Virus record (IMG/VR): IMGVR_UViG_2541047680_000005
Reading direction: 5' to 3' (one strand)
DNA: 12,296 bases
Source of the DNA: a virus
Lineage: Duplodnaviria > Heunggongvirae > Uroviricota > Caudoviricetes
The position numbers were made by a program, and so were the translations under genes. The notes under the pieces were generated by a model. The model was given only the letters and a program-made list of their open reading frames with translations. It searched no databases and was not told the DNA's origin. Shown piece by piece: positions 1,273-10,771 of the stretch. Within the stretch, counting starts at the first letter, position 1. Each line of letters opens with the position of its first letter.

Positions 1273-1869
1273 TCATCTACCCTCAACCATGAATGATTTG
1301 ATCGTTCCGACTATTTGGTGAACAAATTCAAGATCGCTTTTCCTGAAGATGGCGCGTTGTGAGTTTGTTCCATCCAGATAGTAATTTTCATCATCAAAAC
1401 GGGCCAGGCGCTGGATAGTGATATTTCCTGCAGTATCACGAACCAGAACATCCTCGCCGGGGACCAGTTCCAGCGCAGAATCGACCAGGAGAAAATCGCC
1501 TGGCTGATAGTTTCCCTGCGTAAGATTGCTGATAGTTAACGCATACACAGTATTGCGCTGGCTGATGAATGGCAGGAATCGCTCAGTATTTGGAACCTGT
1601 CCCGGCTTCCACTCTTCATCCGGCCCACTTTCAGTTGTGCCAATAACAGGAATGCGATCAGGGTCATATTCTGTCCCATATAGCACCCAATGCACTGGCT
1701 TGCGTAAGCACTTAGCCAGGGCAATACCTATCTCCAGTGACGGCATTACGTCGCCACGTTCTAAGTTTTGGACGCCTGCTATAGAGATATCGACAGCCTC
1801 AGCAACTTCTCGCAACGTCAGCTTCATCTCTAAACGGCGTGCTTTCAGTCGTTCGCCTCGTGTTTTCAT
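1273..1869 (-). CDS. CI-like prophage repressor (N-terminal HTH, C-terminal LexA/S24-like domain, probably non-cleavable)
   Basis: 198-aa ORF. N-terminus LTLREVAEAVDISIAGVQNLERG is a classic XRE-type HTH. C-terminus PGDFLLVD...GNITIQRL aligns by eye with the LexA / lambda CI S24 core, but Gln replaces the catalytic Lys and no Ala-Gly cleavage site is evident. Divergent from the cro-like gene with operators between. Confidence 0.85.
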   Translation of the reverse strand: MKTRGERLKARRLEMKLTLREVAEAVDISIAGVQNLERGDVMPSLEIGIALAKCLRKPVHWVLYGTEYDPDRIPVIGTTESGPDEEWKPGQVPNTERFLPFISQRNTVYALTISNLTQGNYQPGDFLLVDSALELVPGEDVLVRDTAGNITIQRLARFDDENYYLDGTNSQRAIFRKSDLEFVHQIVGTIKSFMVEGR

Positions 1870-2882: not shown

Positions 2883-3135
2883 ACAAGTTATGTTCAGGAA
2901 ACCGTCGAAGCCAGAATTAAGGTATTCGGGGGTAAGAAATGAATATGTTATCTGGTGTCCAACTTGTGGTTACAGGACACGACCAGATAGTAATAAGCAG
3001 TCTGTAATTGCCGATTGGTATTTATCAAATCAGCCAGGTAATAAGCATATAGAAAATCTTTGGATTAAGCGTTACTTGGAAATCAGAGAGGGTGCGACCG
3101 TGGTCGCACAAGAAAATGAAAATAACGCCATTTAA
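2815..3135 (+). CDS. Small Cys-rich (CxC...CxxC) putative zinc-ribbon protein
   Basis: Track ORF. Contains FCLC and CPTCGY. Start is uncertain: ATG 2815 overlaps the upstream gene by 68 nt, and the alternative ATG at 2890 lacks an SD and would drop the first Cys pair. The last 15 codons include one copy of the 18-bp palindrome. Confidence 0.4.
   Translation: MRRRSAVKSSNAIGQEVPFCLCKQVMFRKPSKPELRYSGVRNEYVIWCPTCGYRTRPDSNKQSVIADWYLSNQPGNKHIENLWIKRYLEIREGATVVAQENENNAI
3092..3109. repeat. 18-bp palindrome copy 2 (GTGCGACCGTGGTCGCAC)
   Basis: Perfect 8-bp arms with GT centre; at the 3' end of ORF 2815..3135, where it again encodes ATVVAQ. Confidence 0.6.
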
Positions 3136-6238: not shown

Positions 6239-6526
6239 TTAATAAACAGCGCGAATATCGATGGTTGCGCCGCAGGCATGAGCATATTTAGCCAAAGTTT
6301 TCATACTTGCCCCTAAAGGATTGCTTTCCAGGCGGCTGATGGCTGACGGTCGCAACCCCATTCGTTCAGCCAGAGCTGATTTCGTTAAACCTGCTCTTTC
6401 CCTCATTTCGTATAACATTTCGACCATCTCCAGCTCTTTGTCGGCCTCTTCATATCCTTTGACGGCTTCTGGAGTGTTGAGGAGTTTTTCTTTTACTTCG
6501 TTAAACGGGATGCCTTTCGCTTTCAT
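6239..6526 (-). CDS. HigA-like antitoxin (XRE-family HTH)
   Basis: 95 aa, with HTH segment LTKSALAERMGLRPSAISRLE. The start overlaps the toxin stop (ATGA at 6526) and the gene lies downstream of the toxin, the HigBA-type order. Confidence 0.8.
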   Translation of the reverse strand: MKAKGIPFNEVKEKLLNTPEAVKGYEEADKELEMVEMLYEMRERAGLTKSALAERMGLRPSAISRLESNPLGASMKTLAKYAHACGATIDIRAVY

Positions 6527-6837
6527 CAGTTCATCTCCTTCAGGCGAGTTCTGGCGATTTCGATAGCCTTCACCGGTGTTTTCTGTGTCTTTTTTACAAA
6601 TGCATGCAATAGATAAATTTCGTTACCAGTCGCGTAGGCGTACAGCGTTCTTGCGATGTTTTTATCCCCTACTCGTAGTTCAAAAAGCCCTCCACCTATT
6701 ACACGGCTATGGGGCATCTTCAGTTTGTTGCCTTCCTTCTCCAGTCGCTCAATTAATCTGGTCATGCGACCTCGCAAATCATCTGGTAGTTCAAGCAGTT
6801 CATCCAGTGCTGCAGGGTGGGTTATCACGTTAAACAT
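6526..6837 (-). CDS. RelE/ParE-superfamily toxin of the HigB / phage Gp49-like group
   Basis: 103 aa; size, toxin-first order and overall sequence resemble the Gp49-like (DUF891) killer proteins as I recall them; the family is named after phage N15 gp49. Confidence 0.75.
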   Translation of the reverse strand: MFNVITHPAALDELLELPDDLRGRMTRLIERLEKEGNKLKMPHSRVIGGGLFELRVGDKNIARTLYAYATGNEIYLLHAFVKKTQKTPVKAIEIARTRLKEMN

Positions 6838-6895
6838 ATTATAGCCTCCATAGCCATAAAATACACCAAAACAAGAAAAAAGCGCAAATTAAAAA

Positions 6896-6913
6896 TTTCA
6901 CTAAAAAGTGAAA
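6896..6913. promoter_or_regulatory. Inverted repeat TTTCAC-TAAAAA-GTGAAA in the toxin-antitoxin promoter region (candidate operator)
   Basis: 6-bp perfect arms read directly, ~60 bp upstream of the toxin start codon on the minus strand. Confidence 0.4.
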
Positions 6914-7002
6914 AATAACACTGGATGTGTTCGTTTGGCAGAGTTACAGTTCGTGTCATTGAGGGGCAATAACCCACTAACTATATGAATTTGGAGGATA
7001 TT

Positions 7003-7224
7003 ATGAATTATCAAGGTAACGAAAAAATGCGCGACGACGTTGCGGAGATAGCTAACGAACTGTATGAGTTGTGGCAGAAGGTTGAACGTTTCGAAAAGGA
7101 ATATGGTTTCAACAGTACCAACCTGGCAGACCGACTGGCTGGTCGCTTAGTTGGGACTATGGGGCCAAAACTGGCTGAGTTGAACCGCTTTATGGCTGAT
7201 GTTGATTTCCAGTTTCAAGATTGA
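7003..7224 (+). CDS. Hypothetical protein (73 aa)
   Basis: GGAGG at 6993..6997, 5 nt before ATG 7003 (track ORF starts at the earlier ATG 6985, which lacks an SD). Divergent from the toxin-antitoxin operon. Confidence 0.55.
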   Translation: MNYQGNEKMRDDVAEIANELYELWQKVERFEKEYGFNSTNLADRLAGRLVGTMGPKLAELNRFMADVDFQFQD

Positions 7225-7237
7225 TTAGAGAGGCGTT

Positions 7238-7465
7238 ATGAATATTAATGAAATTCGTGGAAATATGACTGAAGCGGCCCTGAGTGTGGAATGTGTTATG
7301 CGTGGATACCCACGCATTTCCCTGAAAGAGTTAAGCGAAGCCTGTTTTTTGAGTCAAGCTGCCGTTGAATTTATCATCGAACAGATGATCTGTTTTGGGG
7401 TTGCAAAGCGTAGCGGGTCTGGTCGATATTCTTTGACCGATGAATATAAGCAGGCAACTTTCTAA
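7238..7465 (+). CDS. Hypothetical protein (75 aa), possible small DNA-binding regulator
   Basis: SD GAGAGG 6 nt upstream. Directly followed by a palindrome copy and a structured noncoding region. Confidence 0.55.
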   Translation: MNINEIRGNMTEAALSVECVMRGYPRISLKELSEACFLSQAAVEFIIEQMICFGVAKRSGSGRYSLTDEYKQATF

Positions 7466-7470
7466 AAACT

Positions 7471-7488
7471 GTGCGACCACGGTCGCAC
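7471..7488. repeat. 18-bp palindrome copy 3 (GTGCGACCACGGTCGCAC, arms extend to 10 bp)
   Basis: Begins 6 bp after the stop of gene 7238..7465, at the head of the structured noncoding region. Confidence 0.6.
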
Positions 7489-7573
7489 AGCACAAAAACG
7501 AAAAAGCTTGGCAAAATTACGGTTTTTAGTTATTGTTTTGTTAAGTTGGGTTTTTTGTACCCAACAGCCAACA

Positions 7574-7597
7574 AGCCGCCTTTATGGCGGTTTTTTT
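7574..7597 (+). terminator. Intrinsic terminator (short GC stem CCGCC / GGCGG, loop TTTAT, then T7)
   Basis: Stem 7576..7580 / 7586..7590 followed by TTTTTTT at 7591..7597; downstream of the small-gene pair and upstream of the methyltransferase. Confidence 0.5.
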
Positions 7598-7614
7598 GTG
7601 CCTGAAAAGTGGGC

Positions 7615-7640
7615 GCAGGACAAGTTGCAGCTTGTCCTGC
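7615..7640. repeat. Perfect 10-bp inverted repeat GCAGGACAAG-TTGCAG-CTTGTCCTGC
   Basis: Read directly; no T-tract follows, so not a classic terminator. Candidate protein-binding site or RNA stem-loop. Confidence 0.5.
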
Positions 7641-7684
7641 GGTCAACCCATGCCAGAGCTATAGGCTGAACCTAAAGCCCACCC

Positions 7685-7698
7685 GCGATGCGCATCGC
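7685..7698. repeat. Perfect 14-bp palindrome GCGATGCGCATCGC
   Basis: Read directly; contains the ATG at 7688 that the ORF track uses as the methyltransferase start. Confidence 0.45.
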
Positions 7699-7732
7699 CG
7701 GGTTAGCTTACCCAGGCAAAAAAATAATAGCT

Positions 7733-8809
7733 ATGTTCAAAACCACTAATATTCATGGCGCGCAACTCGTTTGCGCAGATTCTCTGCAATTTATCAAAAC
7801 CATCCCTGATAACTCGGTCAATTTGATTGCAACAGACCCACCATACTTCGGCGTAAAGGCTAACGCATGGGATAACCAGTGGGATAGCGATGCTGACTTT
7901 TTGGGGTGGATTGATGAATTTTTGGCAGAATTTTGGCGGATATTGGCCCCTAATGGCAGCCTGTATATGTTTACCGGCTCTCGCCTTGCGTCAAAAATTG
8001 AATTATTAACTCGCGACCGTTTCAATGTTCTGAACCATATCATTTGGGCTAAACCCAGTGGTATGTGGCGCGGTTGTCATAAAGAAAGTTTAAGGGCTTA
8101 TTTTCCTGCCACTGAAAGAATATTATTTGCAGAGCATTACGGCGCGTCAGGTTATGCTAAAGGTCAGTCAGGTTATGCTTCAAAATGTGCAGATTTAAGA
8201 AAAAATATTTTTTCTCCACTAATTGATGCTTTTTCGCTGGCTCGCCGTCAGTTAGATATATCAGCCGCAGACATTAATTCAGCAACAGGAAAGCAGATGT
8301 GTTCGCACTGGTTTTCTTATTCGCAGTGGCGGCTTCCATCATTAAGTGATTTTAATAAACTATGCGAATTATTTCGCAGGAAGGCAGATTCACTCGGTGT
8401 CCCGTGTCCATATCCTTTTAATGTTGATTATTCAGAACATGAAAAGCGTTATAGCGATCTGAAATTGCGTTATGAGGAAGTAAAGAAGCAGTATGATGAT
8501 TTGAAGGCTCAGTATGAAAATTTGCGCCGCCCATTTCATGTTACTGCTGATGTACCTTATACCGATGTATGGGAGTTTCCTCCTGTGCAATATTATCCTG
8601 GCAAGCACCCATGTGAAAAACCTGCAGCGATGATGGAACATATTATAAAAAGTAGTTCCCGCTCCGGAGATATCGTTGCCGATTTCTTTATGGGATCAGG
8701 CTCTACTATTAAAGCCGCGCTGAAGTTAGGTCGTCAGGCAATCGGTATTGAGATTGAGGGTGAACGTTATCTTCAGACAGTTGATGAAGTGAAAAAGTTA
8801 TTTGAGTAA
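7733..8809 (+). CDS. Orphan beta-class DNA methyltransferase (N6-adenine or N4-cytosine)
   Basis: DPPY (motif IV) near the N-terminus in NLIATDPPYFG and FFMGSGST (motif I, AdoMet binding) near the C-terminus; this motif order defines the beta class. A coiled-coil-like insert (YSDLKLRYEEVKKQYDDLKAQYENLRR) lies between them. Start ATG 7733 chosen so DPPY sits ~35 aa from the N-terminus; the ATG at 7688 is possible. No restriction endonuclease partner is visible. Confidence 0.8.
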   Translation: MFKTTNIHGAQLVCADSLQFIKTIPDNSVNLIATDPPYFGVKANAWDNQWDSDADFLGWIDEFLAEFWRILAPNGSLYMFTGSRLASKIELLTRDRFNVLNHIIWAKPSGMWRGCHKESLRAYFPATERILFAEHYGASGYAKGQSGYASKCADLRKNIFSPLIDAFSLARRQLDISAADINSATGKQMCSHWFSYSQWRLPSLSDFNKLCELFRRKADSLGVPCPYPFNVDYSEHEKRYSDLKLRYEEVKKQYDDLKAQYENLRRPFHVTADVPYTDVWEFPPVQYYPGKHPCEKPAAMMEHIIKSSSRSGDIVADFFMGSGSTIKAALKLGRQAIGIEIEGERYLQTVDEVKKLFE

Positions 8810-10491: not shown

Positions 10492-10510
10492 AAATCTCTT
10501 TGTTTCTCGT

Positions 10511-10528
10511 GTGCGACCGTGGTCGCAC
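10511..10528. repeat. 18-bp palindrome copy 4 (GTGCGACCGTGGTCGCAC)
   Basis: 20 bp after the stop of the DUF4406-like gene. Confidence 0.6.
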
Positions 10529-10730
10529 ATTAAATACCGCGCTGCATCGTCGCCGTATTTCCGCATTAACCATGACCGTAGCCCGACGGGGAACTCCTCT
10601 GCGCGAGTGTGCGGAAATAATCAAAAACGATGCACACCGGGTTTTTACCGCGCTAATGATTCGCGGGTTTGTCCCTCATGCTCGCCAGTCCTGTGCGAGG
10701 GTGGAAGAAACAGGGCATGTATTCAGGAGC

Positions 10731-10748
10731 GTGCGACCGTGGTCGCAC
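10731..10748. repeat. 18-bp palindrome copy 5 (GTGCGACCGTGGTCGCAC)
   Basis: 24 bp upstream of the start codon of gene 10772..11632; with copy 4 it brackets a ~200-bp noncoding stretch. Confidence 0.6.
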
Positions 10749-10771
10749 GGTATCTTTGTCAGGAGGTTTTG

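Follow-up and report, generated by a model that had tools for sequence, protein, structure and literature searches.

A late-operon switch and a conserved three-hairpin domain, possibly an antisense RNA, meet at the late terminator of an N15-like telomere phage-plasmid

The DNA analyzed in this study is a stretch of 12,296 nucleotides from a tailed phage (Caudoviricetes; IMG/VR record IMGVR_UViG_2541047680_000005), referred to below as the window. It carries, at positions 7466-7732, an interval of 267 bp that an earlier sequence-only reading had described as a densely structured noncoding region upstream of methyltransferase and lysis genes. This placement proved right: a DNA methyltransferase gene (methylase; PF01555) and the holin, lysozyme, and Rz genes were found downstream. 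The best explanation of the interval as a whole, to which we assign a probability of about 0.55, is that it consists of two units meeting at an intrinsic terminator, namely a late-operon switch at 7466-7597 and a domain of three hairpins at approximately 7598-7720.

Around the interval, a 2-kb stretch matches the Escherichia phages YDC107_1 (genus Ravinvirus) and PhiR46_1 at 100% identity; the identities to 28 plasmid records of E. coli, Shigella, E. albertii, and E. fergusonii range from 95.7 to 100%, and those to Enterobacter relatives and the Klebsiella phage phiKO2 are 74-75%. Because of these identities, the window is classified by sequence as a Ravinvirus, that is, an N15-like linear telomere phage-plasmid. 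The gene map is based on the YDC107_1 annotation (locus coordinate = window + 101) and on Pfam. The interval is preceded by gp50 (7003-7224) and gp51 (7238-7465) and followed by the first late gene, the plus-strand gp52 homolog at 7733-8809, which encodes an N6/N4 DNA methyltransferase (PF01555, E = 5.4e-46; also annotated in YDC107_1), and then by the holin, lysozyme, and Rz genes. The order gp50, gp51, interval, methylase, and lysis genes is common to the window, N15, and phiKO2. The Q antiterminator gene is located at 2172-2882 on the plus strand (PF06323 Phage_antiter_Q, E = 2e-84) and is annotated as a 'phage antitermination Q family protein'.

The structures previously noticed in the interval are all present, with one correction. 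The palindrome at 7469-7490 has 10-bp arms, CTGTGCGACC-AC-GGTCGCACAG; the intrinsic terminator, placed earlier at 7574-7597, has its stem at 7573-7593 and its run of seven T at 7591-7597, within 1 nt of the claim; and the perfect 14-bp palindrome GCGATGCGCATCGC occupies 7685-7698. The inverted repeat reported at 7615-7640 is indeed perfect, but its arms measure 11 bp rather than 10 (7614-7624 and 7631-7641, separated by a 6-nt loop). The suggestion that such a density exceeds that of a simple spacer is borne out by shuffle controls, which it surpasses by far. The 267 bp contain two perfect hairpins with a stem of at least 9 bp, whereas 1000 dinucleotide shuffles yielded 0.02 on average and never more than 1; folded as RNA, 7543-7745 reaches z = -4.76, and none of 200 shuffles folds as well; and the 20-nt palindrome motif occurs five times in the window versus 0.00 expected. 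What does not stand is the assignment of all four palindromes to one late-control device, since the first is a SopB site and the last two belong to the separate three-hairpin domain, most likely selected in minus-strand nucleic acid. Thus the proposed late-promoter and antitermination region with a terminated leader is retained for 7466-7597, where it agrees with the N15 and phiKO2 homology, the annotated signals, and the Q gene. The alternative offered with it, a small structured RNA, survives in spirit, although such an RNA would run antisense to the assumed direction and would be distinct from the terminated leader.

The first palindrome (7469-7490, with perfect 10-bp arms) is a putative SopB (ParB)-binding centromere inverted repeat and the positional homolog of N15 IR3. 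It contains at 7471-7488 an exact copy of the partition-site core, GTGCGACC-AC-GGTCGCAC. The cores of the SopB-binding sites IR1-IR4 of N15 (PMC7205306, Table 4) are identical to its 16-bp form, GTGCGACC-NN-GGTCGCAC, and the homologous phiKO2 site bears the GenBank label 'putative plasmid partitioning site'. Copies of the palindrome lie at 648-667, 3091-3110, 7470-7489, 10510-10529, and 10730-10749 of the window: one is within repA, one is just past Q, and two follow the lysis genes at a distance of 220 bp from each other. The entire genome of PhiR46_1 (46 kb) has exactly these five and no others, with none expected by chance, and it encodes ParA and ParB at 43667-45822, outside the window. 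By its sequence, therefore, this palindrome is a partition (centromere) site and not a part of the late-control device. The system resembles F-plasmid sopC and N15 IR1-IR4 in its core, identical to those of the N15 repeats, in its dispersed copies, and in the presence of ParA and ParB in the genome; it differs from F, whose sopC consists of 10 tandem repeats as opposed to dispersed single copies, and from N15, for which four sites are described instead of five. In PY54, the alignment shows an F-like TGGGACC core at this place.

Variation in the number of partition palindromes was observed among the Klebsiella relatives. The K. pneumoniae INF116 plasmid (locus L014, 442-520) and phage 48ST307 (L005, 470-560) have two tandem palindromes approximately 45 bp apart upstream of the late promoter, where other elements carry one. 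Further, many phiKO2-like Klebsiella plasmid records, for instance NZ_CP031794.1 and NZ_CP102549.1, match the partition-promoter-terminator segment (query 17-177) in two or three places.

The partition site is followed by the signals of late transcription. A sensitive search aligned 7471-7746 with N15 41124-41400 at 83.5% identity over 276 nt, and 7442-7616 also with phiKO2. The promoter scan identified a plus-strand homolog of the late promoter p52 at 7508-7536, with a -35 box TTGGCA (7508-7513), a 17-nt spacer, and a -10 box TATTGT (7531-7536). The hexamers and their spacing are annotated, and were also recovered by the scan, in N15 and phiKO2, and the hexamers are conserved in alignment A1 of 15 sequences. 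The intrinsic terminator of the late leader (stem 7573-7593, U-run 7591-7597, plus strand) is the sole terminator-like site detected by the scan in 6800-8200. N15 and phiKO2 have a terminator annotated at the corresponding position, and the scan recovers one in both of them and in PY54. The GGCGG-T7 block (7586-7597) is invariant in all 15 sequences of A1, with variation in the 5' arm and the loop. The GenBank record of N15 lists a -35 box, a -10 box, and a rho-independent terminator at the homologous positions. The phiKO2 record (AY374448), the annotation source for this late control region, gives upstream of gene 52 the order partitioning site, 'putative late promoter' (-35/-10), and terminator.

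The promoter and the terminator delimit a predicted transcript of approximately 55 nt, which contains a predicted plus-strand leader hairpin at 7545-7565 (GUUGGGU/ACCCAAC). A -10-like element, TAAGTTGGG, at 7542-7550 on the plus strand, overlaps the predicted start site. Seven of its nine positions (T98, A99, and G101-G105 of A1) are invariant in 15 of 15 sequences, PY54 included, and its bases also take part in the leader hairpin. By analogy with the lambdoid promoter pR', we infer that TAAGTTGGG is a candidate sigma70-dependent pause signal or Q-loading signal. A Q-binding element was not recognizable in the sequence.

We are therefore highly confident, by homology, that 7466-7597 is a late-operon switch of the N15 type. 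This identity is already known from N15 and phiKO2 and is not new. The likeness to the N15 late control region covers the order of gp51, SopB repeat, TTGGCA-17-TATnnT promoter, terminator, methylase, and lysis genes. In N15, p52 is reportedly the late promoter, terminators are said to lie between p52 and the first open reading frame (ORF), an analogue of Q reportedly antiterminates so that read-through depends on Q, and mutation of IR3, which adjoins p52, is reported to delay lysis. By homology to N15, terminator read-through in the window phage is inferred to depend on Q as well. In the mechanism proposed here, a SopB site lies just upstream of the sigma70 late promoter, and this promoter would produce a leader of about 55 nt with a 5' hairpin. 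Transcription of the leader would stop at the intrinsic terminator unless RNA polymerase is modified by Q, and the modified polymerase would proceed into the methylase, lysis, and virion genes.

The arrangement is reminiscent of the lambdoid pR'-qut-tR' region, the source of lambda 6S RNA and StxS, in having a promoter closely followed by an intrinsic terminator that Q would override, a short leader RNA as a predicted by-product, and a -10-like element overlapping the predicted start site. As described in PMC7547250, the lambdoid pR' is always active and its transcription stops just downstream in lysogens, yielding a short RNA such as StxS. The window phage differs in the length of the leader (approximately 55 nt), in the partition site next to the promoter, in the family of its Q protein (PF06323), and in the position of the Q gene, which in lambdoid phages stands directly upstream of the late promoter. 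In the window this is not so: the end of the gene (2882) and the start of the promoter (7508) are 4.6 kb apart, and N15 is arranged alike, with Q encoded kilobases upstream of the late promoter. No similarity of the PF06323 Q protein to solved protein chains was detected. ORF62 of the Yersinia phage vB_YenS_P840 (PMC10612081) would be notable if that promoter also supplied, by read-through, the transcription of the lysis genes.

The stretch between the terminator and the methylase start (7598-7732) has no feature in the N15 and phiKO2 records, whereas in the window phage it holds a conserved minus-strand structure; in PhiR46_1, ORF calls are placed across it. It can be aligned over its full length among the N15, phiKO2, and PY54 lineages and includes invariant blocks; the arms of its hairpins differ between the lineages yet stay complementary. 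The conservation in related phage-plasmids that the sequence-only reading had looked to was found for the pairing of the downstream hairpins and not for their arm sequences. Approximately 40 distinct sequences of the domain were collected by a pattern scan of viral contigs and from phage and plasmid loci. A covariance model built on the minus strand, whose alignment was used for the pair counts, finds the domain once per locus, at 94-181 bits.

On the minus strand, the domain consists of hairpins B, C, and A. Hairpin A (7614-7641) has an 11-bp stem and a 6-nt loop. Its minus-strand stem is uninterrupted (10-12 bp) in 19 of 21 distinct sequences, with compensatory changes in eight of 11 pairs, and the plus strand shows A·C mismatches where the minus strand has G·U. 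Hairpin C (7642-7672; minus-strand GGUUCAGCCUAU...AUGGGUUGACC) has compensatory changes in seven of 12 pairs. Hairpin B (7675-7709) is long, contains the 14-bp palindrome of 7685-7698, and rests on a base helix AAGCU/GGCUU. One of its pairs switches from G-C (22 sequences) to A-U (19), six of the eight upper pairs are compensatory, and a U·G pair that would be C·A on the plus strand is kept in all 41 sequences. Two longer-range helices were also noticed. The tentative closing helix P1 joins GCCTG (7600-7604) with CAGGC (7713-7717); it has one covarying pair (G-C in 20 sequences versus U-A in 17), takes the form GCCUU/AAGGC in the phiKO2 types, and is degenerate in PY54 and loci L025 and L053 and absent from L017. 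The alternative helix M4 pairs GTGGGC (7609-7614) with GCCCAC (7677-7682), generally (A/G)UGGGC with GCCCA(U/C), and one of its pairs is A-U in 20 sequences, G·U in three, and G-C in 19, without a mismatch. M4 and the base of hairpin B overlap and may thus represent alternative conformations.

In the covariance alignment, 89.4% of the cells pair, compared with 78.9 ± 0.5% in shuffled alignments (none of 500 reach this value) and 32-45% when the pairing partners are slid. Compensatory changes affect 25 of 47 pairs, versus 18.7 ± 1.6 after shuffling (none of 500) and 5-8 after sliding.

The strand on which the structure is selected was assessed by folding each hairpin separately on both strands, without an alignment. 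Greater stability on the minus strand was found for 14 of 17 distinct sequences of hairpin B, for all 21 of hairpin C, and for 20 of 21 of hairpin A, that is, for 55 of 59 altogether. The G·U pairs are distributed accordingly, 21 on the minus strand versus 4 on the plus strand for hairpin B, 38 versus 6 for hairpin C, and 21 versus 6 for hairpin A (80 versus 16 in total). For hairpin C, the mean energy is -11.7 kcal/mol on the minus strand and -6.8 kcal/mol on the plus strand. Whole-domain z-scores are better for the minus strand in eight of 10 diverse representatives (means -3.97 and -3.31), and a common architecture is seen among the minus-strand folds of the domain but not among the plus-strand folds. 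The leader hairpin upstream of the terminator serves as an internal control and has the reverse bias: its plus strand is more stable in 23 of 23 distinct homologs, with 21 G·U pairs on the plus strand and one on the minus strand. Since the leader hairpin favors the plus strand and the downstream hairpins favor the minus strand, the bias flips at the terminator, as expected for two converging transcription units. We consider it quite probable that the domain is a real conserved structure selected on the minus strand.

This strand-specific pattern also bears on the possibility that the palindromes at 7614-7641 and 7685-7698 are double-stranded operators for a dimeric protein such as gp51, gp50, a methylase controller, or CB/Cro. 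Both palindromes are near-perfect, and gp51 has weak winged-helix matches. However, double-stranded sites cannot yield an 80-to-16 excess of G·U over A·C on one strand, the hairpin arms differ almost completely between lineages while pairing is kept over 11-12 bp, and the CB/Cro operator motif TTATAGCTGGCTATAA occurs only at 1892-1933, with no copy near the methylase start. Because of the G·U pattern in the first place, a double-stranded protein site is disfavored, and we regard it as very improbable.

The strand test is relevant as well to a structured 5' untranslated region (5'-UTR) of the late mRNA, in which the bias toward the minus strand would be incidental. Such a region could serve as a stabilizer, an RNase III site, a ribosome standby platform for the methylase, or a put-like element keeping the polymerase terminator-resistant. 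Transcription of the plus strand in the presence of active Q is known, and its fold is significantly stable (z = -3.85 to -5.04). It is the only strand on which (G/A)UGGG can pair with CCCAU, with a G·U in 19 sequences. Helix P1 and the constant spacing would also place the domain at the 5' edge of the ribosome-binding region of the methylase. The spacer from hairpin B to the methylase ATG (7710-7732) is 23 nt long and A/U-rich, with no Shine-Dalgarno sequence; its length, counted by eye, is exactly 23 nt in six of six lineage representatives (N15, phiKO2, PY54, L025, L053, and L017), although its sequence diverges. The methylase start lacks a Shine-Dalgarno sequence in most lineages, which would suit a 5'-UTR function. 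On the other hand, A·C mismatches break plus-strand hairpins A and C in the majority of lineages, and of 42 distinct sequences 41 give the less stable hairpin on this strand, the minimum-energy folds of the plus strand are inconsistent between lineages and differ from the centroid, and the leader hairpin demonstrates that a plus-strand RNA at this locus does leave a plus-strand G·U signature. On balance, a plus-strand 5'-UTR, in any of these forms, appears unlikely.

The methylase ATG at 7733 is conserved in every aligned sequence that reaches this column. The ATG at 7688, within the 14-bp palindrome, was considered as an alternative start and rejected, as the phiKO2 types have ATT there and ATG 7733 is conserved. 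Annotations of this region vary: in PhiR46_1 (L267), the methylase start is called at the ATG inside the palindrome (14970; window 7688) and a 53-aa ORF (14790-14951) is called across the promoter, the terminator, and hairpin A, and the annotated start of N15 gene 52 is 229 nt downstream of the conserved ATG (L003, 1998 versus 1769). The first 27 or so nucleotides of the methylase gene (codons 1-9), ATGGAAAACACTGTAAAAATAAACAGT, are identical in PY54 and phiKO2 (for example, L001 3839-3866 and L008 803-830), phages that are otherwise highly diverged, with gp51 only 31% identical. ATGGAAAACACTGTAAAAATAAACAGT contains an inverted repeat CACTGT-N8-ACAGTG and could be a promoter or another minus-strand signal; the window differs at 7733-7760.

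Of the explanations considered for the domain, we favor a cis-antisense regulatory RNA, at somewhat less than even odds for the existence and the function of a minus-strand transcript. In this view, the three hairpins would form a structured RNA transcribed leftward from near the methylase start, antisense to that part of the late transcript that exists only after terminator read-through. In the plasmid-prophage state, it would pair with leaky read-through transcripts and neutralize or process them, or alternatively it could set a threshold for late and methylase expression. Tentatively, then, the N15, phiKO2, and PY54 telomere phage-plasmids may encode an unnoticed structured antisense RNA of approximately 110-150 nt, acting as a fail-safe or threshold on Q-dependent late expression, of the methylase and lysis genes, in a multicopy plasmid prophage. 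Converging on the late terminator, such an RNA would be complementary to no transcripts other than those that have passed it, and the idea that two small convergent units share one terminator is put forward with the same reserve.

Several observations weigh against an antisense RNA. The scan found no convincing minus-strand sigma70 promoter in the window (near 7720-7800), phiKO2, N15, or PY54; hand inspection gave only lineage-specific candidates, such as the minus-strand TATTAT at 7729-7724, which is conserved only in the N15 group. As to the 3' end, the shared terminator hairpin is followed on the minus strand by only UUGU or UUAU, a poor U-tract, and hairpin A is followed by CCCA(C/U)UUUU (CCCACUUUUU), which scored terminator-like only in N15. 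The plus-strand fold in the window is also significantly stable (z = -4.8 to -5.0), and the constant 23 nt between hairpin B and the methylase ATG could indicate a role in translation, on the plus strand. The covariance alignment was fitted to a minus-strand model, and its pair counts thus lean to the minus strand, a bias that the per-hairpin fold test avoids. The approximately 40 sequences fall mostly into three groups (N15-, phiKO2-, and PY54-like), so that many compensatory cells are inherited rather than independent. Finally, a literature search for transcript data on N15-like phages found none.

Selection of minus-strand hairpins without a nearby promoter would be explained if the domain were an insulator, a hairpin stack that keeps stray leftward transcription originating in the late genes from running into the late promoter and terminator. 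Consistent with this, the scan rates two of the minus-strand hairpins as terminator-like, A in N15 and B in phiKO2 and PY54, each followed by a U-rich tract. Yet the U-tracts are short and not adjacent to the stems, loops and linkers that simple terminators do not need are also conserved (GCGCCCA, GGCAUGGG, and the UGCGC loop), and three hairpins at a fixed spacing and a fixed distance from the ATG exceed the needs of termination. We consider an insulator improbable.

Single-stranded DNA could in principle carry the same signature, as DNA hairpins also tolerate G·T pairs. The phage G4 origin and the plasmid ssi signals consist of three stem-loops, and three adjacent stem-loops in approximately 110 nt resemble the G4-type signals; the domain would then load a primase or primosome on the minus strand in plasmid or lytic replication. 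However, no similarity was found beyond N15-like elements in the phage and plasmid collections, a rightward fork from the repA origin would presumably expose the plus strand as the lagging-strand template, N15-like elements encode their own primase-helicase RepA, and there would be no explanation for the tight positional link with the late terminator and the ATG of the methylase. A replication signal thus seems even less probable than an insulator, though still ahead of operators.

If the domain does produce an antisense RNA, its closest counterparts would be the cis-antisense RNAs of phages and plasmids, such as the lambda anti-Q paQ RNA, the oop RNA, P22 sar, and multi-hairpin RNAs of the CopA/RNAI type. 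Like these, the candidate is a multi-hairpin element of approximately 110-150 nt opposite a regulated transcript and beside a lytic control point, and its 6-nt loops would suit kissing contacts. It differs from them in facing an untranslated leader that exists only after antitermination, instead of a coding region or a ribosome-binding site. It also shares no sequence or Rfam family with paQ, oop, sar, or CopA/RNAI.

At the gathering thresholds, Rfam gave no match in the whole window. Sub-threshold matches in the interval and five relatives (AgrB, 27.3 against 40; ctRNA_pGA1, 22.9 against 45; isrK, 14-22 against 50) were dismissed as chance; they are due in large part to the terminator hairpin, those to AgrB and isrK most clearly so.

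Judging by sequence and covariance matches, every enterobacterial telomere phage sampled has the domain between its terminator and its first late gene. Among the carriers are many phiKO2-like plasmids from clinical Klebsiella, which make up 173 of the 210 plasmid records that match. Searches of phage and plasmid collections revealed no sequence similarity to the domain outside N15-like elements. A loose pattern applied to metagenomes matched 120 stretches, and among the 80 loci screened with the covariance model there was one true match (L208). The element is not traceable further out, because two loci with gp51 homologs at 55% identity (L141 and L142) lack it according to the covariance model. 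The gp51 search of a species-representative genome collection gave two loci, L089 and L090, labeled Novosphingobium arvoryzae and Limoniibacter endophyticus, respectively. Both are in alphaproteobacterial assemblies from one culture collection, and as the L090 copy is of the Klebsiella type and scores 176 bits, these loci are likely contamination. In one IMG/VR contig (3300036846_000707; L054, 5605-6330), an ORF for an IS3-family transposase ends inside the late terminator. This ORF stands in place of the promoter, the leader, and the terminator stem's 5' half, and the three-hairpin domain and the methylase are intact.

Among the other genes of the window, the YDC107_1 annotation and Pfam identify the repressor (1273-1869, minus strand), cro (1934-2182), and a toxin-antitoxin pair (6239-6837, minus strand). 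The latter corresponds to gp48 and gp49, annotated in relatives as a RelE/ParE-family toxin and a helix-turn-helix antitoxin, and is oriented convergently. The promoter scan also reported a promoter-like site at 7007-6980 on the minus strand, and the tRNA/tmRNA scan gave no match. The YDC107_1 record (CP025712.1, 28021-46299) looks like an assembly folded back through a hairpin telomere: the protelomerase gene, repA, and their neighbors are present twice, in inverted orientation, and parA and parB are not among the listed genes.

The left half of the interval confirms the N15 late switch in a widespread E. coli phage-plasmid and is mainly of value for annotation. Of greater interest is the right half, a conserved domain without a feature in the N15 and phiKO2 records and without an Rfam match, whose pattern is on the strand that was not supposed to be transcribed. 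The flip of the G·U versus A·C bias at the terminator offers a simple diagnostic for two convergent transcription units. If the antisense RNA is real, it would add a post-termination layer to the textbook antitermination switch and could help to explain how the lysis genes are kept silent in a multicopy plasmid prophage.

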